Virus genome (UHGV): UHGV-0168719
Origin: a virus
Reading direction: 5' to 3' (one strand)
DNA length: 19,923 nucleotides
Shown here: piece by piece, positions 1 to 19,791 of the stretch
Numbering within the stretch: position 1 is the stretch's first letter
How the letters are laid out: every line of letters begins with the position of its first letter
Translations under genes and position numbers: made by a program
The notes under the pieces: model-generated
Told to the model about the DNA's origin: nothing
What the model saw: the letters and a program-made list of their open reading frames with translations, nothing else
The model's database searches: none

Positions 1-104
1 AAAAAAATATTATATATAGGGAGATCAAATACAACGGTTTACTTGTTATGATGCAAACATTGGTTAGTTAGTGAGATACATCGCCATCAATTGGGTAACT
101 TTAC

Positions 105-320
105 CCGTGGAAAGTTAACGCTTTCTAACATTTACCCCGCGCAACGCCCCTGCCAGCGACAAGAGTCACAGGATCAGGCGGTATGGCGTATGGGTATTCG
201 AACCCTTTGGGCGACCAAGGGTTCGTGGAGCAGGGGGCTAGTGCTGTTCAATCTCATCCTTATGAGGGCGAACCATAGTGTTGGAGCAGACATATCGTTT
301 GCACACTATGGGCATAAGGA
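105..320 (+). ncRNA. Candidate structured non-coding leader, possibly a retron msr/msd-like ncRNA; boundaries approximate
   Basis: GC-rich island inside AT-rich DNA directly upstream of the HTH-RT operon. Hairpins seen: gaaag-ttaacg-ctttc (110-125); cgaaccctt / aagggttcg 9-bp stem (199-207 with 217-225) enclosing tgg-GCGA-cca (GNRA loop); ctcat-cctt-atgag (252-265); ccatagtgt / acactatgg 9-bp stem (273-281 with 302-310). Direct repeats tggagcag (226-233 and 283-290) and gggcga(a)cca. The overlapping 91..483 track ORF starts at TTG with no RBS. No a1/a2 inverted repeats or long msd stem found. Confidence 0.3.
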
Positions 321-327
321 GCAAATC

Positions 328-483
328 ATGAAGAATGATAAATTAACCAACGAACAGCAGGCGCAGAACAAGTCAAACCTGAAAAAGTGGGCTGGTTATG
401 TTTGGAAATTAATCAAATGGGGTATTAGACTGTTTGATTTAGCCACTCGAGCACTGGACTACTTTGAAGGGGGTGATGAGTAA
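328..483 (+). CDS. Small hypothetical protein (51 aa), first ORF of the RT operon
   Basis: ATG at 328 preceded by a consensus AAGGAG (316-321) with 6-nt spacer; product MKNDKLTNEQQAQNKSNLKKWAGYVWKLIKWGIRLFDLATRALDYFEGGDE has a polar N-terminus then a W/K-rich amphipathic segment. No family recognised. Confidence 0.45.
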   Translation: MKNDKLTNEQQAQNKSNLKKWAGYVWKLIKWGIRLFDLATRALDYFEGGDE

Positions 484-1864: not shown

Positions 1865-3229
1865 CTAATTTTTTAATGTGTATTTTTCTGTGATTAGTTT
1901 CATTGTTCTTTCCAATCCTAAATATACAGTGGCATCAGTAATATTGAGCACGGCAAGTTCTTTTAAAATTTTCTTTTTGTCTCTGATGTTTATTTTTTCT
2001 GTCTTAAAGTTGTATGGTGAATTATCTGCCTGATCGTTGGATATCTCAGGAAAAACGGCGTTATTACCGAATAATAAAAAGGCACCGGATTGAGATGATA
2101 TTCTTTCATTATTTATCCTGCTTTTTACAAAAATTATCTTTTCCAAATCATCTGGATTTATTATGCTTTGAAAATATGGTTTTTCATGCTTTATGGATTC
2201 TAAGAGTTTAAGGCAAGCATGAGAGTTGTTAAAATCATTATTTCTTTCTTCGAAAGAAAGCTTGTCTTTCATGTCTTTTGATAGCATGCATAAATTAGAT
2301 ATGCAACTGACAGTGTCGGAATCGAAAAATTTAATGTTCTCTCTGTGTGTTTTAAATATTATTACTTGACCATCGATATCGTTTTTGTCGGAATTTATAC
2401 TACTGCATGCAAAATAAAGTGCAATTAATGGATTTGATGTGATGTCAAGTAAGCGAGTAGGTATGCCATAATGTTGCATTCTTACAAGTTTATCAAGCAT
2501 TGATGTATCATCAATGAATTCTGAGGGTCTTGCGCTCAATGCTTCTTTAACAAGGTTGATTTCATTATGTAGAAATTTATAGTTCCCATTTTCATATTTT
2601 CTGAAAAGAGATGGTGCAAGTTCATAAGATGAATCTGAATGACCCCTGTAAAAAATCTCCTCATCCATATCTGCTGTTATATGGAGAACTTTTTCAATAA
2701 ATTCTTGTAAACTATTTACGGTTAATAATGTGCTATCTTCGTCTGGGAGAGGCGCTGGACTGCTATCCACTTGTGCATTTTGGTTAATACCAAATGTCTT
2801 AAGGATATCATCTATATTTTTGTCTTTTATGGCCCAGTGTGTTCTTTTAAGGCCATAAGTTCCGAGTTCTAAACTGCTTTCAACACTTTTGGCGTCTGAT
2901 ATTTTGATTTCATTGTGTGTATGGGTGATTGCAAATTGGAAGTTGATTTCTTTTCCCTTAATGTGAATATTTGAAATTCTTCCAATTCGTATGTCGACAT
3001 AATAAGGTTTTGCTCCCTCTATTTGATAAGCTTCACTCATGAATATTGTTGGGAGTTTTTCAAGATAAGATAGTACATTGCTGCTTAATGGGGATAGTTT
3101 TTTGCGAATACCATCGGAGGTGTTTTCAAACATTCGTGATAAAAGAAATGAGAATTCTCCATTATTTTGGCTGAATGGTTTCCAGTGGTCGTAGTGGTCG
3201 GGAAAACCACCCATAATTAAATTAATCAT
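1865..3229 (-). CDS. FRG-domain protein (454 aa) with an unassigned ~190-aa N-terminal region
   Basis: Central region carries the FRG-domain signature: EEIFYRGHSDSSYELAPSLFRK ... LVRMQHYGIPTRLLDITSNPLIALYFAC ... ERISSQSGAFLLFG (roughly nt 2070-2655). AT-rich gene convergent with the RT operon; ATG at 3229. Confidence 0.8.
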   Translation of the reverse strand: MINLIMGGFPDHYDHWKPFSQNNGEFSFLLSRMFENTSDGIRKKLSPLSSNVLSYLEKLPTIFMSEAYQIEGAKPYYVDIRIGRISNIHIKGKEINFQFAITHTHNEIKISDAKSVESSLELGTYGLKRTHWAIKDKNIDDILKTFGINQNAQVDSSPAPLPDEDSTLLTVNSLQEFIEKVLHITADMDEEIFYRGHSDSSYELAPSLFRKYENGNYKFLHNEINLVKEALSARPSEFIDDTSMLDKLVRMQHYGIPTRLLDITSNPLIALYFACSSINSDKNDIDGQVIIFKTHRENIKFFDSDTVSCISNLCMLSKDMKDKLSFEERNNDFNNSHACLKLLESIKHEKPYFQSIINPDDLEKIIFVKSRINNERISSQSGAFLLFGNNAVFPEISNDQADNSPYNFKTEKINIRDKKKILKELAVLNITDATVYLGLERTMKLITEKYTLKN

Positions 3230-3512
3230 AATTACCTGTTCATCTGATGTAGGTGTAGGAATGCTTGTTGTTTGTTATGGTAATGTTAACGCTTGTTGGT
3301 GGCAACTACTATTACTACTTGCTGTTAGAGCTAAGACATTTTTTGATTGCTTGTAATGATAGCGAGCCTTTAACTAACTGGGATTTTGAAAAAATAAATG
3401 AATTGTCAATTTCCTGAGATTTTTATTACTGCATTCATTAAGTGCATTTTTTTGCGTGTGTTAGTTGCCATGCTTTTCCATGTTTGTTACCAGTGTTGAT
3501 GCGGTTACTGTG

Positions 3513-3534
3513 TTTTAATGCAATTGCATTAAAA
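3513..3534. repeat. Perfect 22-bp palindrome ttttaatgcaa/ttgcattaaaa, 19 bp left of cos
   Basis: Exact dyad read directly from the sequence; function unknown (packaging-site element, protein-binding site or hairpin). Confidence 0.5.
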
Positions 3535-3553
3535 GCGCCCTATGAAGCGGGCG

Positions 3554-3572
3554 GGCGAGGCGGGGAAAGCAC
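3554..3572. other. cos cohesive-end site (P2-type 19-nt sequence ggcgaggcggggaaagcac)
   Basis: Matches the P2 cohesive-end sequence as I remember it, and the flanking sequence up to the end of Q also resembles the left end of the P2 genome. From memory, not a database check. Confidence 0.6.
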
Positions 3573-3712
3573 TGCGCGCTGGCGGTGGTGCGGATTTTAT
3601 TTTTTCAGCGTCTGAGCGCGTCGTGAAGGCGTTTACTTGGCCTGCTAGGGCGTTGGTGTGTCTGCGGGGTGTTTTGTGCGGTGGTGAGCGTGTGAGGGCG
3701 TGATGACGGGGT

Positions 3713-3736
3713 GTAAAAAAGCCGCCCGCAGGCGGC
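3713..3736 (-). terminator. Rho-independent terminator downstream of Q (end of the P-Q operon)
   Basis: On the minus strand: gccgcc-tgcg-ggcggc hairpin followed by TTTTTT, beginning 6 nt after the Q stop codon (3742-3744). Confidence 0.65.
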
Positions 3737-3741
3737 GATGT

Positions 3742-13132: not shown

Positions 13133-13876
13133 TTATCTGGTCAAATAAGTGAGGGTACTCTCTTCAGGTATTAGTTGGATATCTCCACCCCAGACGTCCA
13201 TTATGTTTTTTCTTGCTTCCCAATATTCTGGATATGTGTTTTGATGAGCATTGTAGATACAAGCTAAAAGCCAGTGCTGGTATTTAAGAGTTGTGTATTG
13301 GTATTCCTCTATTATCGGCAAGATGAATAAATTTTTTTGTTCTGTTGACTTCAGGTATTCTTTTGATTTACCAGAAAGCCGGTCATTCTCCAGTATGGTT
13401 TCAATCTTAAATGCAAATCCGTGTATGTTTATTTTTTTCTGGAGGTGCATAAATGATGATATTAATGGGGAGATCATTTTTTGATGGGTTAGGATGTTTC
13501 TTAAATCTTCCATTAATTTTATGATTGGATTTTTTAAAAATTCTTCATTGATGATTTCTCTGGATTTATTGGTAATATCATCAATATTTAATACATTGAT
13601 TTTATGTAGATTACGCGTTGAATCTCTAAATGATAATGCTGAGGAGATATAGTTGAGAAAATGTCTTGATATATTTATGTGCTGTTTTTTTAATTCATTT
13701 CTATTAAGTGAGTAGTGGAATACAATTTCAGGAGAGTTGAATTTGCTTAATTCACTTTGAATCACCTCATAATTGGCAATGTGTATATGTCCAAGTAAAT
13801 TGGTGTCGGAAATTTTTAAATATTCTTTATGGGCGATGGTGTCTTTTTGTTTTTCCCAGATTTGATATTTATCCAT
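13133..13876 (-). CDS. Hypothetical protein (247 aa) in an AT-rich insertion between S and V
   Basis: Minus-strand ORF with AAGGAG 7 nt upstream of the ATG at 13876 (track ORF extends to 13975 with no RBS). No family recognised; contains an Rx4H motif (LRNILTHQK). P2 has a nonessential orf30 in this position; relatedness was not assessed. Confidence 0.7.
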   Translation of the reverse strand: MDKYQIWEKQKDTIAHKEYLKISDTNLLGHIHIANYEVIQSELSKFNSPEIVFHYSLNRNELKKQHINISRHFLNYISSALSFRDSTRNLHKINVLNIDDITNKSREIINEEFLKNPIIKLMEDLRNILTHQKMISPLISSFMHLQKKINIHGFAFKIETILENDRLSGKSKEYLKSTEQKNLFILPIIEEYQYTTLKYQHWLLACIYNAHQNTYPEYWEARKNIMDVWGGDIQLIPEESTLTYLTR

Positions 13877-15852: not shown

Positions 15853-16456
15853 TTCGCGCCTGCTGCCAACCGGCTCATCGCCGCTTGAAGTTGCCGCCGC
15901 AAAAGCCTGTGCGGAAATTGAAAAAACGCCGGTCAGGATTCGTGAACTGTGGAACCCGGATACCTGTCCGGCAAATCTGCTGCCGTGGCTGGCGTGGTCA
16001 TTTTCGGTTGACCGCTGGGATGATAAGTGGCCGGAAGCGACAAAACGCGCTGTTATCCGCGATGCGTATTTCATTCACTGCCATAAGGGCACTATAGGCG
16101 CAATCCGGCGTGTGGTGGAGCCGCTCGGCTATCTGATTGAGGTGAGGGAGTGGTGGCAACTCAACGAGGAGCCGGGGACGTTCCGCATCGTTGTTGGTGT
16201 GCTTGAGCAGGGTATTACCGAGGAAATGTATCAGGAGCTGGAGCGCCTCGTTGCTGATGCAAAACCGGCAAGCCGCCATCTGACGGGACTGGCTATCAGC
16301 TTAAGTACAACCGGCAACATTTTTGCCGGTGCGGGATGCTATCACGGTGACGCCCTGACGGTTTATCCCTACACCCCGGAGGCCATTATTGTCGGAGGGG
16401 ATTATTTCCCGGCCTCGGCCATTCATTTAATTGATAACCTGAGAGTAAACGCATGA
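15845..16456 (+). CDS. I: Baseplate protein I
   Basis: [30 protein letters not shown]... matches the P2 I N-terminus; 203 aa here, a little longer than I recall for P2 I. Confidence 0.88.
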
Positions 16457-17613
16457 CAGTGAAATACTACGCCATTCTGACTAATCAGGGCGCAGCACGC
16501 CTGGCTAACGCGACGATGCTCGGCAGTAAGCTGAATCTGACGCAAATGGCCGTTGGTGATGCGAATGGTGTCTTGCCGACACCAGACCCGGCACAGACAA
16601 AACTGATTAATCAGAAACGCATTGCACCGCTGAATCTTCTGAGTGTTGACCCGAACAACCAGAGCCAGATTATTGCGGAGCAAATCATCCCTGAGAACGA
16701 GGGCGGATTCTGGATCCGTGAGATTGGGCTTTATGATGATGAAGGCGTACTCATTGCGGTGGCGAACTGCCCGGAAACGTACAAACCGCAGTTGCAGGAA
16801 GGAAGTGGTCGTACCCAGACTATCCGCATGATTCTGGTTGTCACGAATACCGAAGCTATTACGCTGAAAATCGACCCGTCGGTGGTATTGGCGACCCGTA
16901 AATACGTGGATGATGAAGTCCTGGAATTAAGGCTGTATGTGGATGACCAGATGAGAAAACACATTGCCGCACAGGACCCTCATACCCAGTATGCACAGAA
17001 ACATAATCCGACATTTACCGGAGAACCAAAAGCGCCGACGCCTGCCGCAGGAAATAACACCACGCGGATTGCGACCACTGCGTTTGTACAGGCCGCTATT
17101 ACCGCTCTGATTAACGGTGCGCCAGCCACACTGGACACACTGAAAGAAATTGCCGCGGCCATTAACAATGACCCGAAATTCAGCACCACCATTAACAATG
17201 CGCTGTCAGGTAAGCAGCCACTGGATGAGACGCTGACTCATTTGAGTGGAAAGGATGTTGCCGGTCTTCTCGCATACCTTGGTTTGGGAGAAGCGGCGAA
17301 AAGGAATGTGGGGACTGGGGCGAATCAGATACCTGATATGTCATCATATGCATCAGGTTCAGGCTGGCGAAAAATGCCAGATGGTTCAATTGAACAGTGG
17401 GGAGGAATTCGTTTTCCTGGTGAACACGAGCCTGTATCCGCCAATGTTTCATTCCCAATTCCATTTACACAGACACCGGACATTATAATTGTGTTCGATG
17501 GTGGTTTCGGGGGCGGGAATATGTGGGGGGCGACCAACTGGAGCACTACCGGCTTCATAGCTCACTGCAATTATGGTCTTGAAGGTGGTGCGTTTTTCGC
17601 TAAGGGCTGGTAA
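16453..17613 (+). CDS. H: Tail fibre protein H in its current orientation: constant N-terminal part plus short variable C-terminus
   Basis: N-terminus resembles P2 H (MAVGD..G.LP.PD, GGFW.RE.GLYDD.G.LIAVAN, GSGR.QT.RM...). The reading frame runs through the left crossover site (17267-17292, encoding LAYLGLGE) into a 107-aa C-terminus unrelated to the P2 H tail. Confidence 0.9.
17267..17292. other. Left crossover site of the invertible segment (26 bp, gix/cix-like)
   Basis: ttctcgcataccttggtttgggagaa matches the reverse complement of the right site at 21 of 26 positions, including 14 consecutive identical bases (ttggtttgggagaa). Confidence 0.7.
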
Positions 17614-18056
17614 TGATGAAATATCTGTACGTAAACAACCTGGCATATCCTTACGAACTTCAGTCTCTTTATGTTGAAAAAGGTGAATGGCCTGAAGAAA
17701 AAGGTGTTGATATAGACGAAGTAATTTTCAGGGAATATTTCTATGATACACCACCAGAAGGAAAATACAGATGTGTCGGAGAGGATGGACTGCCTGCATG
17801 GGCAGATATTCCTCCACCAACACGTGAAGAACAAATTGCATCAGCCGAAACTAAAAAGCAGCAATTGATTAACCAGGCCAACGAATACATCAACAGTAAA
17901 CAATGGCCAGGTAAAGCATCAATTGGTCGTCTGAAAGGTGAGGAACTGGCGCAATATAATTTGTGGCTGGATTATCTGGACGCACTGGAGCTGGTCGATA
18001 CTTCCAGTGCACCAGATATTGAATGGCCTACTCCTCCGGCAGTTCAGGCCAGATGA
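17613..18056 (+). CDS. Tail fibre assembly protein for the current orientation, 147 aa
   Basis: Position directly after H with TAATG coupling and AAGGG RBS; C-terminus LVDTSSAPDIEWPTPP parallels the C-terminus of the opposing tfa (DTSTAPDVIWPELPEE). Confidence 0.85.
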   Translation: MMKYLYVNNLAYPYELQSLYVEKGEWPEEKGVDIDEVIFREYFYDTPPEGKYRCVGEDGLPAWADIPPPTREEQIASAETKKQQLINQANEYINSKQWPGKASIGRLKGEELAQYNLWLDYLDALELVDTSSAPDIEWPTPPAVQAR

Positions 18057-18630
18057 CATCCGGCGCGGTGCTGGTATCTGTTGCCGTCACCGCGTCAATG
18101 TAATCCAGCACGGCGTTAAGTCGGGTTGTTTCTGCCTGCGTCAACTTCCGTCCGGCCTGTAATTTCAGCTGAATCAGACTAATGGAAGCCATTGCTGCAT
18201 TAATCAGTGACTGGCGCTGTGCTTCTGCCGCGTCTAGTGCGGCGCTATGCTGTGCCTCGGTATCCGTCACCCATTTCTCACCATCCCATTTATCGTATGG
18301 CGTTAATGGGGCGATAGTGGTTGTATTTTCAGGGTAATCACCCGGAACTGTGATTTCTTTGGTATCTCCCGTTTCGGTACTATAGACAACTTCACCGCGA
18401 TGGTCTGGCACATATTCCCATGAATTTAAATCTACAGAGCGACAGATTGCATAACCAGCTTTATGTGTACCTGGTGCATCCAGACAGGAACATGCCGGGA
18501 TACCGACGCCGACAGCGAGATATTCAGTTGATGTAGAAATATATTCCCGCGTTTCGCCATCATAGTTATGTACGATGATTTCCCCATCATTTAAAGCGTA
18601 ACCGTCTTTTCCCAAAATAGCCTGTTCCAT
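18028..18630 (-). CDS. Alternative tail fibre assembly protein for the inverted orientation, 200 aa
   Basis: Minus-strand ORF directly downstream of the alternative H cassette; C-terminus resembles the other tfa; its 3' end overlaps the plus-strand tfa by 29 bp. Confidence 0.85.
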   Translation of the reverse strand: MEQAILGKDGYALNDGEIIVHNYDGETREYISTSTEYLAVGVGIPACSCLDAPGTHKAGYAICRSVDLNSWEYVPDHRGEVVYSTETGDTKEITVPGDYPENTTTIAPLTPYDKWDGEKWVTDTEAQHSAALDAAEAQRQSLINAAMASISLIQLKLQAGRKLTQAETTRLNAVLDYIDAVTATDTSTAPDVIWPELPEE

Positions 18631-19142
18631 TTATGCAGCCCTCACAATGTAGTTAAATGCAATGTTTCGCGGGCTACCATCACCGGCGCCGGAACTGACA
18701 TGATTGGTTCTATCCATTCGTTTACTGTCATTTGTTGTTCCACTCCCATCCTTCCACGAATACAATATCCCGCCATCGCCAATGCTCAACTGCACCGCAA
18801 ATACGGATGATGTACCTAATTCACCAACATCTCTAGCCATGAGTGGGTTCCCTGTCCATCCATGCATTTCATGGTTATGTTCAAGGATAGATGCTGCCTG
18901 ACTTGAAAGCAGCAGTCTCGCGGAATCAACACCTCGCCCATCATCCCACCCGCGAATAAACTCACCGCGCAAATCCGGTAATTTTAACTTTGGGTAAGCC
19001 TTTGCCAGTTTTGGGTACTCTTCGGCAGAAAAAGGTGCACCGTTGCATTTCAGCCAGCCTGTTGGTGGTGTGGCTGAAGGCCACGGAACAGGCACACCAA
19101 CGGGTAACGCTGAGCCTTCTCCCAAACCAACGTTTATGAAAA
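18631..19142 (-). CDS. Alternative tail-fibre C-terminal cassette (H'), promoterless, expressed only after inversion
   Basis: Translation from the crossover site (GLGEGSALPVGVPVPWPSATPPTGW ... NIAFNYIVRAA) resembles the P2 H C-terminus; in frame with the GLGE codons of the site. The track ORF runs to 19170 but that extension lies outside the segment. Confidence 0.8.
19117..19142. other. Right crossover site of the invertible segment (26 bp)
   Basis: ttctcccaaaccaacgtttatgaaaa, inverted relative to the left site, about 50 bp upstream of the invertase gene. Confidence 0.7.
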
Positions 19143-19197
19143 TGCAGAGATAACGGGCAACTGGCATCATCTCCGGTTTTTATTCAGGGGGATGCTC

Positions 19198-19791
19198 ATG
19201 CTTATTGGCTATGTGCGCGTGTCAACAAATGACCAGAACACGGAATTGCAGCGTAACGCGCTGGAGTGTGCAGGATGTGAGCTGATTTTTGAGGATAAAA
19301 TCAGCGGCACGAAGTCCGACCGACCGGGACTGAAAAAACTGCTCAGAACATTATCAGCAGGTGACACTCTGGTGGTCTGGAAGCTGGACAGGCTGGGGCG
19401 TAGTATGCGGCATCTGGTCATTCTGGTTGAGGAACTGCGCGAACGCGGCGTTAATTTTCGCAGCCTGACGGATGCCATTGATACCAGCACGCCGATGGGA
19501 CGTTTTTTCTTTCATGTGATGGGTGCCCTGGCTGAAATGGAACGAGAACTCATTGTCGAGCGGACTCGCGCCGGACTGGAAGCGGCCAGAGCTAAAGGTC
19601 GTATTGGTGGCAGACGTCCGAAACTCACCGCGAGTGAGTGGGAGCAGGCCGGGCGGTTGTTGGCTGCAGGGGAATCACGTCAACGCGTGGCACTGATTTT
19701 TGATATTGGCCTGTCCACGCTCTATAAAAAATTCCCCGCCTCCGTGACAAAAAATAAATTGTGTCATCCCTTAGCCAACCGGGACAAATAG
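19198..19791 (+). CDS. Serine DNA invertase (Hin/Gin/Pin/Cin family)
   Basis: MLIGYVRVSTNDQNTELQRNAL with catalytic Ser, ...LVVWKLDRLGRSMRHL..., C-terminal HTH region GRLLAAGESRQRVALIFDIGLSTLYKKFPAS; start taken at ATG 19198 after GGGGGA (the track's ATG 19192 is also possible). Confidence 0.9.
   Translation: MLIGYVRVSTNDQNTELQRNALECAGCELIFEDKISGTKSDRPGLKKLLRTLSAGDTLVVWKLDRLGRSMRHLVILVEELRERGVNFRSLTDAIDTSTPMGRFFFHVMGALAEMERELIVERTRAGLEAARAKGRIGGRRPKLTASEWEQAGRLLAAGESRQRVALIFDIGLSTLYKKFPASVTKNKLCHPLANRDK

Follow-up and report, generated by a model that had tools for sequence, protein, structure and literature searches.

Results

A conserved reading frame of 51 codons upstream of an HTH gene

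The stretch of the viral genome UHGV-0168719 that we analyzed (19,923 nt, hereafter the window) contains a short open reading frame (ORF) that is preceded by a Shine-Dalgarno (SD) sequence and located between a structured leader and the gene for an HTH protein. We asked whether this ORF is a gene and, if so, to which system its product belongs. The two features concerned are:

328–483, + strand: SP gene, encoding a 51-aa small protein (SP), the predicted toxic effector of a retron
316–321, + strand: SP Shine-Dalgarno AAGGAG; AAGGAG or AAGGAA in 12/12 loci, paired in the MFE and the consensus structures

A sequence-only reading of the locus had pointed to an AAGGAG with a 6-nt spacer before ATG 328, and the signals are present as described: the AAGGAG at 316–321 is followed by the spacer CAAATC (322–327), the ATG at 328 and a TAA at 481–483. 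T315 lengthens the SD to TAAGGAG, so that 7 nt match the 3′ end of the 16S rRNA. The predicted product is MKNDKLTNEQQAQNKSNLKKWAGYVWKLIKWGIRLFDLATRALDYFEGGDE. The motif AAGGAG-N4–9-ATG occurs twice in the window against 0.79 occurrences expected, and 40 of 200 shuffled sequences also reached two. Its frequency is thus within chance, and we dropped the SD and ATG as stand-alone proof of an SP gene. We judge the ORF to be real because it is conserved.

Related loci were gathered by exact-protein look-ups, by BLAST searches of E. coli and phage sequences, and by scanning metagenomic and viral contigs with profiles. A contig scan with the RT protein alone returned one Flavobacterium locus, which was irrelevant. 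The ORF was open in 12 of 12 distinct Enterobacterales loci, with SD, start and stop all kept, and no other frame was free of stops in all 12. No interrupting stop or frameshift was seen in any of these loci; the SP gene of Kosakonia carries a 9-nt deletion, which is in frame. When the observed substitutions were placed at random, the probability of the frame staying open was 0.03 for the most divergent locus and 0.09–0.22 for intermediate loci. Locus L012, which differs from the window SP gene at 57 of 153 nt, retains an open frame (P ∼0.03). With frame, SD, start and stop conserved throughout, we regard the ORF as a genuine small-protein gene of the retron.

The median dN/dS of SP is 0.35. 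An excess of synonymous changes was found in the comparison with L012 (P = 0.0004) and was not significant among close relatives (P = 0.04–0.53). Codon-position periodicity is weak (26/22/35 variable sites), as RNA structure also limits the sequence. Indeed, dS is 0.2–0.7 in SP vs. more than 1.5 in RT, which indicates constraint on SP at the RNA level. As dN/dS is weak among close relatives and synonymous sites are under this constraint, we did not use it as a decisive coding test. Instead, the coding call relied on frame conservation, whole-codon indels, distant homologs and synteny.

SP homologs were found in Klebsiella, Enterobacter, Citrobacter, Serratia and Kosakonia, and a profile search yielded 13 clusters of SP relatives of 47–54 aa, two of which had been called as longer ORFs. 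The distant relatives have ∼40% aa identity to SP, and in them the frame is open and changes in length are always whole codons. Two of them were checked; both are followed by HTH and RT genes and are found outside P2 contexts. Relatives with RTs 35–58% identical to that of the window have an equivalent small ORF in the same place. Across the homologs of 47–54 aa the N- and C-terminal motifs remain in frame, and a polar N-terminus, a basic linker, an amphipathic helix and an acidic C-terminus persist where the nucleotide sequence of SP does not. Among near-identical retrons the SP helix shows 7–8 non-synonymous changes vs. no synonymous ones; phage inhibitors locked in an arms race with SP would be one, speculative, explanation of this fast amino-acid turnover.

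The ORF had been taken to be unannotated, which does not hold for public records. In RefSeq E. coli genomes exactly this ORF is the hypothetical protein WP_001754918.1, and in PHROGs it matches the 51-aa family phrog_15287 (E 3e-39), whose function is given there as unknown. The phage record NC_049386.1 annotates SP over-long, as a protein of 130 aa starting at TTG 91. We rejected this longer ORF as the true gene, since the extension is not conserved (0–92 extra aa depending on the locus); in E. coli C5, an in-frame stop 42 nt upstream of SP also argues against it. No SP model was found in Pfam, NCBIfam or PADLOC 2023.

The ORF occupies the SP position of a Type VI retron

Two genes follow the SP gene:

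520–840, + strand: HTH gene, 106 aa, Type VI retron Cro/C1-type; PADLOC HTH_VI 6.3e-30, full length
806–1756, + strand: retron reverse transcriptase (RT) gene, 316 aa, YVDD motif; Pfam RVT_1, PADLOC RT_VI

Type VI retrons, whose RTs belong to retron clade 3 in the classification of Mestre et al. (2020), are defined by the order ncRNA-SP-HTH-RT, with an HTH protein that is of the Cro/C1 type, has a length of 91–110 aa and is encoded immediately upstream of the RT gene or overlapping it. The operon in the window has the order ncRNA-SP-HTH-RT, and PADLOC calls it a Type VI retron. SP ends 36 nt before the HTH gene, the conserved start of which is ATG 520 with GGAG at 510–513, and the RT gene overlaps the HTH gene by 35 nt. 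The HTH protein has weak matches to Pfam HTH_3 and HTH_31. For the RT the assignment is clear: RT_VI matches at 1.1e-105 (351 bits, profile positions 1–278 of 279), and the next-best PADLOC model, RT_III-A, reaches 152 bits, with RT_II-A also among the next-best. Thus, an RT, a small HTH gene overlapping that of the RT and an SP gene between ncRNA and HTH are all found here, and the SP-HTH-RT synteny holds in every related locus examined.

In the published tree, the RTs of the E. coli relatives WP_000746343.1 and WP_001461245.1 fall in the ‘Large’ Type VI clade, the leaves of which include RTs from E. coli C5 and from the O157 locus with 84% identity. The same clade holds Retron-Vpa2, and the related RTs are not labelled 2075.

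The sequence-only reading had not recognized the ORF as part of known retron architectures and proposed a new accessory. However, small auxiliary proteins of Type VI retrons have already been listed (Mestre et al., 2020; PMC7736814), and SP was shown to be a toxic effector in Retron-Vpa2 (bioRxiv 10.1101/2025.10.22.683967) and in Retron-Sen3 (bioRxiv 10.64898/2026.04.27.721009). SP is therefore an already known Type VI component and not a new accessory. We are highly confident that ORF 328–483 is the SP gene of a Type VI retron.

SP belongs to the protein family of the Vpa2 toxin

A polar N-terminus and an amphipathic helix-like segment had been noticed in the product, and both were borne out by calculation. 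Residues 1–20 are strongly polar (mean Kyte-Doolittle ∼−2.1), and residues 20–44 have a helical hydrophobic moment of 0.6–0.8. The AlphaFold2 model is a single long helix over residues 3–47 (pLDDT 77.6, rising to 87–89 over residues 21–40), one face of which carries W26, I29, W31, I33, L35, F36 and L38. A C-terminal helix with a hydrophobic core, which is needed for the toxicity of the Vpa2 SP, is thus predicted for the window SP as well. We found no transmembrane segment in SP: no more than 6 residues in a row are free of D, E, K and R, and the highest 11-residue mean hydropathy is 0.91. It therefore lacks the hydrophobic transmembrane helix of ∼18–20 residues seen in Hok- and TisB-like toxins, and the suggestion that the peptide is membrane-active is left without support.

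To compare SP with the Vpa2 toxin, we pieced the Vpa2 sequence together from Table S3 in the supplement to the Sen3 preprint. Pairwise BLASTP of the two proteins gave an E of 0.012. Alignment of an 11-sequence SP profile to the Vpa2 SP with hhalign gave 89% probability (E 2.4e-6) over 48 of 51 columns, end to end. Both proteins have an N-terminal [DE]QQ motif and a C-terminal F[DE]GGD directly before the stop. Based on these alignments, the window SP belongs to the same protein family as the Vpa2 SP. SPs of the cl2075 group are 75–79 aa long with an N-terminal extension of ∼25 residues; the window SP has 51 aa, and no cl2075-like sequence was seen among its homologs.

SP is encoded within a conserved RNA fold

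The sequence-only reading had allowed that the ncRNA might overlap the ORF. This is what we found, as the SP coding sequence sits within a conserved RNA fold. Its main parts are:

71–526 (approximate), + strand: structured transcript (hybrid RNA: msr-msd, then SP coding sequence), with ends inferred from the outermost conserved helices
92–225, + strand: first arm, msr-msd-like, with hairpins 92–107, 108–127, 135–194 and 199–225
226–237, + strand: 5′ strand of a long-range helix, UGGAGCAGGGGG, pairing with 490–502 and closing the arms that hold the SD and the SP coding sequence
490–502, + strand: 3′ strand of this helix, CUCCCUAGUUUCA, with its first base 7 nt beyond the stop codon of SP

The MFE of 60–520 is −163.7 kcal/mol (z = −4.85 vs. 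shuffles). RNAalifold predicted 126 pairs from the 12 loci; 98.1% of cells are paired in this consensus fold vs. 40–46% in slid controls, and 24 pairs are compensatory vs. 1–3 in the controls. The loci L020 and L022, which had no part in deriving the fold, keep 78% and 75% of the pairs vs. 39–47% when slid, with 19 and 12 compensatory pairs, respectively. The fold predicts an RNA of ∼450 nt with three arms (92–225, 242–359 and 360–489). Within the first arm, the center of hairpin 135–194 varies in length and sequence, with insertions of 20–24 nt in the Klebsiella, Enterobacter, Citrobacter and Serratia loci and of 11 nt in Kosakonia, and its base pairs covary. By analogy with the 63+23-nt msDNA of Vpa2, hairpins 135–194 and 199–225 are likely the template for reverse transcription.

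All 12 pairs of the long-range helix 226–237/490–502 hold in 12/12 loci, 10 of them without any change and 2 with changes on one side only. Its non-coding 3′ strand is nearly invariant even where SP is only ∼40% identical, and it corresponds to IR2 and an a1/a2-like repeat of published Type VI RNAs. Helices H9, H10 and H11 do not vary within the 12 close loci, so that their covariation comes from a few distant ones. For the HTH gene, SD and AUG (508–526) are predicted to pair with 71–87; this pairing is supported among close relatives only and is not kept in the distant L020 and L022. A scan of the + strand upstream of the RNA found no sigma-70-like promoter. An Rfam search of 1–2000 (E up to 1) returned no family, which is uninformative because Type VI ncRNAs are not in Rfam.

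The SP start region is itself enclosed in this structure, in which we note four short elements:

257–264, + strand: anti-Shine-Dalgarno UCCUUAUG, pairing with 313–320 (CAUAAGGA); 8/8 pairs invariant in 12 loci
325–339, + strand: start-codon hairpin AUCAU-GAAGA-AUGAU, holding A328 and U329; consensus helices H14/H15
209–215, + strand: direct repeat copy 1, GGGCGAC, in the loop of hairpin 199–225; 12/12 loci
266–272, + strand: direct repeat copy 2, GGGCGAA, two nt 3′ of the anti-SD; 11/12 loci

The SD:anti-SD helix has 2 compensatory changes in the distant L020, and in ∼15 of 19 diverse Type VI loci a partner of the SD is predicted 45–76 nt 5′ of the ATG, with differing sequences. In the predicted ensemble of the window the helix is only ∼48% populated, the alternative being a local hairpin CUCAU/AUGAG at 252–266. 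Pairing of the SD exceeds 90% in the loci from Klebsiella, Enterobacter, Citrobacter, Serratia and Kosakonia. A328 and U329 have a pairing probability of 0.97–0.99 in the window.

Type VI hybrid RNAs carry conserved direct repeats, one in the msd loop and one in the riboregulator. GGGCGA is present in exactly two copies in 60–520. At copy 2 Kosakonia has CGGCGA, and in L022 the repeat degenerates to GCGA. By analogy with the Vpa2 model we propose that GGGCGAA at 266–272 may be the docking site for the msDNA loop. GGGTATT, at 192 and 420, was considered as a second repeat and rejected: it is less conserved, and one copy lies within the coding sequence instead of in the arm that sequesters the SD. 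As modelled, the occluded SD, the coding sequence used as structure and the closing helix match the hybrid RNA published for this type.

The retron is cargo of P2-like phages

In the P2-like phage that carries it, the retron sits at the gpA-gpQ cargo hotspot, a known defense hotspot in which retrons are included, and 60–1760 of the window is 100% identical to the matching stretch of Peduovirus P2_2H1. The family is present in 100 of 5,426 complete E. coli genomes, O157:H7 among them, where it forms at least three diverged lineages (84%, 79% and ∼75% nt identity), and also in Klebsiella, Enterobacter, Citrobacter, Serratia and Kosakonia. Scans of metagenomes and viromes gave, beyond this Enterobacterales group, Type VI RTs that are 35–48% identical to that of the window.

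Taken together, we conclude that ORF 328–483 very probably encodes the SP, the toxic effector, of a Type VI retron that is carried as gpA-gpQ cargo of a P2-like prophage. From its homologs we infer that SP would be translated and toxic in the window locus, and that msDNA would be made and defense conferred there.

Discussion

Comparison with known retrons

Retron-Vpa2 from Vibrio parahaemolyticus, a member of the ‘Large’ clade, has the same order of msr-msd, SP, HTH and RT. Its SP has 55 aa vs. 51 aa in the window, and the two have the [DE]QQ motif, a basic linker, an aromatic-rich helix and F[DE]GGD in common. The Vpa2 RNA is likewise three-armed; its stems hold the SD and AUG, and an inverted repeat closes it downstream of the SP stop. 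As compared by description, the short direct repeat of Vpa2, in the loop of an msd hairpin and beside the stem that sequesters the SD, has a candidate counterpart in the window RNA. The window retron differs in being carried on a P2-like phage of Enterobacterales and in that the predicted occlusion of its SD is only partial (∼48%). Set beside it by description, Retron-Eco12 is a Vpa2-related Type VI retron of E. coli, in which msDNA was not detected at baseline and which protected against lambda-vir (bioRxiv 10.1101/2025.10.22.683967). Anti-phage defense is known for Vpa2, Eco12 and Sen3.

Retron-Sen3 from Salmonella enterica (cl2075) also has the order SP-HTH-RT, with an SP toxin that the HTH protein counteracts. 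As in the window, the ribosome-binding site of SP is sequestered in the ncRNA, covariation is found within the SP coding sequence, the SP gene sits between the arms of a long-range inverted repeat, the 3′ one of which comes just past the stop codon, and the ribosome-binding site of HTH is predicted to pair near the 5′ end. In contrast, its SP has 79 aa with an N-terminal extension of ∼25 residues and negligible identity to Vpa2-type SPs, and its RT is in a different subclade from those of the window’s relatives.

Canonical retrons such as Eco1/Ec86, Sen2/St85 and Eco6/Ec48 have in common with Type VI the RT, a structured ncRNA template, an effector and defense by abortive infection. In them the msDNA is abundant and acts as antitoxin, and the effector gene is separate from the ncRNA, whereas Type VI retrons carry the effector ORF within the RNA and, in the case of Vpa2, use the msDNA as activator. 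Type I toxin-antitoxin systems such as hok/sok and tisB/istR also encode small toxins from mRNAs whose fold hides the ribosome-binding site, and they use mRNA processing and an antisense RNA repressor. The likeness to the Type VI model is that the SD is occluded by long-range mRNA structure and that the RNA has to be remodelled for translation. Unlike in type I loci, the activator in the Type VI model is a reverse-transcribed ssDNA, and the window SP is without a transmembrane helix and shares its operon with the RT and HTH genes of a retron.

Control of SP synthesis

Based on Vpa2 and Sen3, the retron of the window may work as follows. In uninfected cells SP would be kept harmless by the RNA-occluded ribosome-binding site together with the HTH protein, which represses or neutralizes SP in the homologs. 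Upon infection, phage recombination functions or inhibition of RecBCD would lead to a build-up of reverse-transcribed msDNA, templated by roughly 135–225. The loop of its 5′ hairpin, GTCGCCC (the complement of 209–215), would dock on GGGCGAA at 266–272 and free the SD, upon which SP would be translated and growth arrested, as in abortive infection. That such a Vpa2-like translational switch is the main control of SP in the window locus seems to us somewhat probable.

A less probable course, which we still take seriously, is the one described for Sen3. There, ssDNA and SP are made constitutively and control is post-translational (bioRxiv 10.64898/2026.04.27.721009). Applied to the window, SP would be made all the time from its strong SD, the HTH protein would be a protein antitoxin from which inhibition of RecBCD releases SP, and the RNA fold would serve reverse transcription and assembly of the complex rather than gate translation. 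That this kind of control has been shown for a Type VI retron speaks for it, as does the toxicity of HTH inactivation in Vpa2 and Sen3 alike; so do the 7-nt match of the SD to the 16S 3′ end and the prediction that the SD is unpaired about half of the time in the window. What points the other way is the position of the relatives’ RTs in the ‘Large’ clade with Vpa2 instead of Sen3’s cl2075, the alignment of the 51-aa SP with the 55-aa Vpa2 SP without the extension of the 79-aa cl2075 proteins, and the conservation across the clade of the SD:anti-SD helix and the adjoining direct repeat. The Vpa2-like and Sen3-like models are not mutually exclusive.

The P2-borne hybrid RNA could also be a switch with two outputs, in which reverse transcription and processing of the msd arm would unmask SP and change HTH synthesis, thereby setting the ratio of toxin to antitoxin. 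In the predicted structures, 71–87 could close the whole fold and mask the HTH SD and AUG (508–526), and the anti-SD at 257–264 could flip between the SD of SP and its own hairpin at 252–266. If true, this would combine the mechanisms of Vpa2 and Sen3; at present we regard it as a speculation with little prospect of being right.

How SP acts, and whether it acts as a protein

As for the mode of killing, SP might insert its helix into the inner membrane in the manner of the type I toxins Hok, TisB and Ldr. Its small size and W/K-rich amphipathic helix (moment 0.6–0.8) are in keeping with this, and so is the dependence of Vpa2 SP toxicity on the hydrophobicity of the C-terminal helix, the N-terminus promoting self-association. 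Given that no segment of SP has transmembrane length (uncharged runs of at most 6 aa, maximum mean hydropathy 0.9), that its C-terminus is acidic, and that the literature assigns no mechanism to SP toxicity while modelling of Sen3 favors protein-protein contacts with HTH, we find this mode unlikely.

It is very improbable that 328–483 is conserved as retron RNA only, its open frame a by-product: the RNA constraint is clear (low dS, covarying helices within the ORF), close relatives show no significant synonymous excess and the SD and ATG are within chance, but the frame is open in all loci including L012, indels in distant relatives are of whole codons, the physico-chemical pattern of SP outlasts its nucleotide sequence, and the homologous SPs of Vpa2 and Sen3 are translated and toxic, with stop or frameshift mutations abolishing toxicity or defense. 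Just as hard to credit is a leader peptide without function of its own, whose translation merely tunes HTH-RT through RNA remodelling: the SP stop 36 nt before the HTH start and the predicted pairing of the HTH SD/AUG with the RNA 5′ end, which would let transit over SP alter HTH translation, would fit, but the peptide features are kept across distant lineages, the family has an experimentally toxic member, and the 71–87/508–526 pairing is lost in L020 and L022.

Implications

The preferred reading, a Type VI SP toxin encoded within its own hybrid RNA, allows ORF 328–483 to be annotated as the SP toxin (effector) gene of a Type VI retron. The 1.7 kb around it would then be a complete phage-borne system, with defense assigned by analogy, and contain no mystery accessory. 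It also exposes an annotation gap: SP has no model in PADLOC 2023, Pfam or NCBIfam, is hypothetical in RefSeq and has 130 aa in one phage record. The biological novelty is small, in that the hybrid-RNA architecture of Vpa2 and Sen3 is confirmed in silico for a widespread family of P2-like prophage retrons. This family would be a convenient native E. coli model for the unlocking of SP by msDNA and for the way in which SP kills.

The small-protein ORF and its product

The 51-aa small protein (SP) is encoded at 328–483 on the plus strand, with TAAGGAG at 315–321, the spacer CAAATC at 322–327, ATG at 328 and TAA at 481–483, which confirms the coordinates, the Shine-Dalgarno (SD) sequence and the 6-nt spacer of a sequence-only reading. 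As that reading described, the product, MKNDKLTNEQQAQNKSNLKKWAGYVWKLIKWGIRLFDLATRALDYFEGGDE, combines a highly polar N-terminus (residues 1–20, mean hydropathy about −2.1) with a strongly amphipathic segment (residues 20–44, hydrophobic moment 0.6–0.8). AlphaFold2 predicts a single long helix over residues 3–47 (mean pLDDT 77.6).

The ORF had been taken to be unannotated. In RefSeq the very same ORF carries the label hypothetical protein WP_001754918.1, it matches a 51-aa PHROGs family (phrog_15287, E 3e-39), and public records contain annotated copies that are nearly identical. A 130-aa version, annotated from TTG 91 (window 91–483; NC_049386.1 29205–29597, a RefSeq phage record), was rejected as an annotation artefact. 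This CDS spans the entire retron ncRNA and enters SP. The upstream extension of SP varies from 0 to 92 aa by locus, with an in-frame stop 42 nt upstream in Escherichia coli C5.

The retron operon and its phage setting

The genes of the region are as follows.

328–483, +, SP gene, 51 aa
520–840, +, HTH gene, 106 aa; PADLOC HTH_VI, 6.3e-30, full length
806–1756, +, reverse transcriptase (RT), 316 aa, overlapping the HTH gene; PADLOC RT_VI, 1.1e-105, full length
1865–3229, −, FRG-domain gene, 454 aa; Pfam PF08867, 2.4e-21; PADLOC PDC-S15, 7e-98; phrog_4962

RT_VI scored 351 bits for the RT, against 152 bits for the second-best PADLOC model. Judged by these profile matches, the operon is a Type VI retron. 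The defining features of such retrons are an RT of clade 3 and an HTH protein of the Cro/C1 type, and some contain small auxiliary proteins of 75–79 aa (Mestre et al., 2020, PMC7736814); the operon order has been described as ncRNA, SP, HTH, RT (Zhang et al., bioRxiv 10.1101/2025.10.22.683967). The ORF is thus a known component of a catalogued defence system and not the new accessory it had been suggested it might be: the observation was correct, the novelty was not.

Otherwise the window consists of P2-like phage DNA (portal, terminase, scaffold, capsid, tail fibres, invertase), and Peduovirus P2_2H1 matches the retron region at 100% identity. All related prophages have the retron flanked by gpA, the replication endonuclease, and gpQ, the portal; this cos-adjacent site is a defence hotspot of P2-like phages, with retrons among its reported cargo. 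The FRG-domain gene is directly 3′ of the retron and convergent with it, and PDC-S15 is a candidate defence family. The same gene follows the retron in Kosakonia; unrelated small genes are found there in other prophages. It probably represents a second and independent piece of hotspot cargo. Between it and the portal gene are ∼500 nt without genes (∼3230–3741), which probably hold the phage cos site, especially near 3548, as the linear P2_2H1 record ends at the equivalent of that position. In strain WP7-S17-ESBL-01 an ISEc12 element (IS21 family) is inserted in this interval. A diverged copy of the same Type VI retron in E. coli C5 (NZ_CP010122.1 2219256–2220685; SP 55% and RT 62% identical) sits outside any P2 prophage, near yeiP, with a hypothetical gene of 465 aa after it, so the retron module is mobile independently of the phage.

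A 247-aa gene with an AAGGAG SD of its own lies at 13136–13876 (−), on the opposite strand within the P2 late (tail/baseplate) region. It gave no Pfam or PADLOC match, is a full-length member of phrog_12680 (function not assigned in PHROGs) and looks like another cargo (moron) gene. At 19192–19791 a 199-aa serine invertase (Resolvase + HTH_7) adjoins tail-fibre assembly and tail-collar genes that are encoded on the strand opposite to the main tail-fibre gene (16453–17613). This arrangement, within 18028–19791, suggests an invertible tail-fibre host-range segment like the Gin/Cin systems.

Conservation and coding signal of SP

The SD–ATG motif alone is unremarkable (2 in the window against 0.79 expected; equalled in 40 of 200 shuffles), so the status of the ORF as a gene must rest on related loci. 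Of 5,426 complete E. coli genomes, 100 gave megablast matches to the retron locus, which fall into at least four lineages (≥99, ∼84, ∼79 and ∼75% identity), and a protein search found 51-aa homologues of 65–98% identity in Klebsiella/Raoultella, Enterobacter, Citrobacter, Serratia and Kosakonia. Conservation and dN/dS across related loci had been named as checks in the sequence-only reading. On the first, the ORF is intact in 12 of 12 distinct loci with SD, ATG and stop codon all kept, the Kosakonia copy carrying a 9-nt in-frame deletion, and the SP frame alone among the six is stop-free in all 12. With the observed substitutions placed randomly, the probability of the frame staying open is 0.03 for the most divergent locus, E. 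coli C5 (57 differences in 153 nt), and 0.09–0.22 for intermediate loci.

On the second, median dN/dS (Nei-Gojobori) is 0.35 for SP; the HTH gene has 0.14 and the RT 0.07. The synonymous excess reaches significance in just one comparison, that with the most divergent locus (P = 0.0004), and not among close relatives (P = 0.04–0.53). Codon-position periodicity in SP is weak. The coding signal from dN/dS is thus weaker than expected, because the coding sequence doubles as RNA structure.

SP differs from the 84%-identical DSM 101139 lineage by 7–8 non-synonymous and 0 synonymous changes, among them W21R, V25A, K27E, I29F, A39V, F46L and D50G, a contrast not significant alone (∼0.13, simple binomial). 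Overall, dN of SP is 0.15–0.2, above that of the HTH and RT genes. The excess could mean that selection diversifies the helix, or simply that the RNA constrains synonymous sites.

Searching 1.8 billion representative proteins with a profile yielded 13 SP clusters, mostly of 47–54 aa; in two the called ORF is longer. Common to them are an invariant QQ, a basic linker, residues W26 and R34, and an [FL][ED]G motif at the C-terminus. In two clusters that were looked up, SP lies upstream of genes for a 102–103-aa HTH protein and a 317-aa RT, in unrelated genomic contexts. RT-profile scans of metagenome and viral contigs gave 68 loci; even at RT identities of only 35–48%, a small ORF occupies the position of SP and has the same layout of polar N-terminus, K/R-rich linker, W/I/L/F-rich helix and acidic end. 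We regard it as very probable that the ORF at 328–483 is the SP gene of a Type VI retron.

A conserved RNA fold contains the SP gene

The region 60–520 folds at −163.7 kcal/mol (z = −4.85 against shuffles). The alignment of the 12 loci gave a consensus fold of 126 pairs, in which 98.1% of cells are paired, compared with 40–46% when the partners were slid, and 24 pairs show compensatory double changes, compared with 1–3 in the slid controls. As the consensus derives from this same alignment, it was tested on two held-out distant loci, L020 and L022, which keep 78 and 75% of the pairs (slid, 39–47%) with 19 and 12 compensatory changes, respectively. The elements of the fold, all on the plus strand, are:

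92–225, +, arm 1: two small hairpins, a long hairpin (135–194) and a hairpin at 199–225
242–359, +, arm 2: closed by UGCUGUUC (242–249) pairing with GAACAGCA (352–359, SP codons 9–11)
257–264 with 313–320, +, helix inside arm 2 that buries the SD: UCCUUAUG, the anti-SD, pairing with CAUAAGGA
325–339, +, start-codon hairpin inside arm 2, holding the A and U of the start codon
360–489, +, arm 3: the remaining SP coding sequence, self-folded, with covarying pairs within the ORF
226–237 with 490–502, +, long-range helix just 3′ of the SP stop, closing arms 2 and 3: UGGAGCAGGGGG pairing with CUCCCUAGUUUCA

The centre of hairpin 135–194 varies in length and sequence, and hairpin 199–225, with the loop GGGCGAC, is perfectly conserved. 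The segment downstream of the SP stop is almost invariant even at ∼40% SP identity. The coding sequence thus lies within a conserved, covarying fold, in accordance with the earlier suggestion that the ncRNA might overlap the ORF. This dual use explains the low dS of SP (0.2–0.7, against >1.5 for the RT in the same loci) and the nucleotide-level conservation of the N-terminal EQQAQ and C-terminal FEGGDE. That the region acts as RNA only and is never translated is highly improbable; this reading would share the covariation and low dS, and a frame kept open in all 12 loci speaks against it.

A mini-ORF of 4 codons at 483–499 (ATG CGT CCT CCC TAG) overlaps the SP stop (TAATG) and is kept with the same stop in the distant loci (ATGTGCTCTCCCTAG in L020 and L022). 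Since the stretch forms consensus helices H16 and H9, its conservation is probably structural. Its CCUCC is itself anti-SD-like. The 5′ end of the RNA (71–87) is predicted to pair with 508–526, which includes the SD (GGAG 510–513) and start (ATG 520) of the HTH gene. This pairing shows a few compensatory changes in the 12 close loci and is broken in L020 and L022; a near-5′-end pairing of the ribosome-binding site of the HTH gene is likewise predicted for Sen3 (García-Rodríguez et al., bioRxiv 10.64898/2026.04.27.721009).

The 12 close loci do not vary in the SD:anti-SD helix and so are uninformative about it; in L020 the helix carries two compensatory changes. In a partition-function survey, the dominant SD partner lies 45–76 nt upstream of the ATG in ∼15 of 19 diverse Type VI loci, with partner sequences that differ from lineage to lineage. 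The SD is predicted to be >90% paired in the Klebsiella, Enterobacter, Citrobacter, Serratia and Kosakonia loci. In the predicted ensemble of the window itself the helix is only ∼48% populated, and a local hairpin of the anti-SD region (CUCAU/AUGAG, 252–266) competes with it. The RNA has exactly two copies of GGGCGA, one within the loop of hairpin 199–225 and one two nt 3′ of the anti-SD.

Comparison with Vpa2 and Sen3, and possible control of SP

In the Type VI retron Vpa2, the msr-msd and the SP coding sequence form an abundant 'hybrid RNA' of ∼470 nt with three arms, in which stems hold the SP RBS and AUG and an a1/a2-like repeat closes the fold (Zhang et al.). Vpa2 SP is toxic alone and requires its hydrophobic C-terminal helix; mutation of the HTH gene or deletion of the non-coding part leads to toxicity. 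No msDNA is detected at baseline; it builds up with lambda Red or in an HTH mutant, is necessary for SP translation and, in trans, sufficient to induce it. On the authors' proposal, msDNA hybridises through a conserved direct repeat of 7 nt, which has a copy in an msd loop and another in the riboregulator, and frees the RBS (Zhang et al.). The cl2075 clade has a related architecture, with a sequestered RBS, IR1-IR2 flanking SP and covariation inside the SP CDS (García-Rodríguez et al.).

Two E. coli relatives of our locus have RTs, WP_000746343.1 (84%-identical O157 locus) and WP_001461245.1 (strain C5), that group with Vpa2 in the 'Large' clade of the tree of García-Rodríguez et al. The SP-family profile aligns end to end with Vpa2 SP (hhalign 89%, E 2.4e-6), whose sequence we reconstructed from a supplementary table, with K15, I39, F43 and F45 at their published positions. 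Each has a [DE]QQ motif and a terminal F[DE]GGD. That the ORF is a leader peptide only, as its place ahead of the HTH gene might suggest, is highly improbable, like the RNA-only reading. The GGGCGA in the hairpin loop and beside the anti-SD is a candidate for a direct repeat like that of Vpa2. Vpa2 msDNA comprises a long stem-loop of 63 nt and a further 23 nt of 5′ stem-loop; hairpins 135–194 (60 nt) and 199–225 (27 nt) would, by analogy, fit these lengths.

The analysis itself establishes the SP gene, the family and operon to which it belongs, and its place within a conserved fold predicted to pair the SD. By homology, SP would be a toxic effector that the RNA fold and the HTH protein keep silent or harmless. 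Phage recombination or anti-RecBCD functions would allow msDNA to accumulate, its loop would dock beside the anti-SD and release the SD, and SP would then be made and stop growth. We lean slightly towards such translational derepression as the main control of SP here, on the analogy with Vpa2. Post-translational control is a possible, rather doubtful alternative that may coexist with it: in Retron-Sen3, ssDNA and SP are constitutive, the HTH protein acts post-translationally as an antitoxin and the system is triggered by RecBCD inhibition (García-Rodríguez et al.). Killing by SP as a membrane-active peptide, suggested from its sequence, is unlikely and not supported, as SP contains no hydrophobic segment of transmembrane length.

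Protection against lambda has already been demonstrated for Retron-Eco12, an E. coli Type VI retron with which this element may or may not be identical. The locus described here would offer a convenient native E. coli/P2 model for the unlocking of translation by msDNA and for killing by SP.
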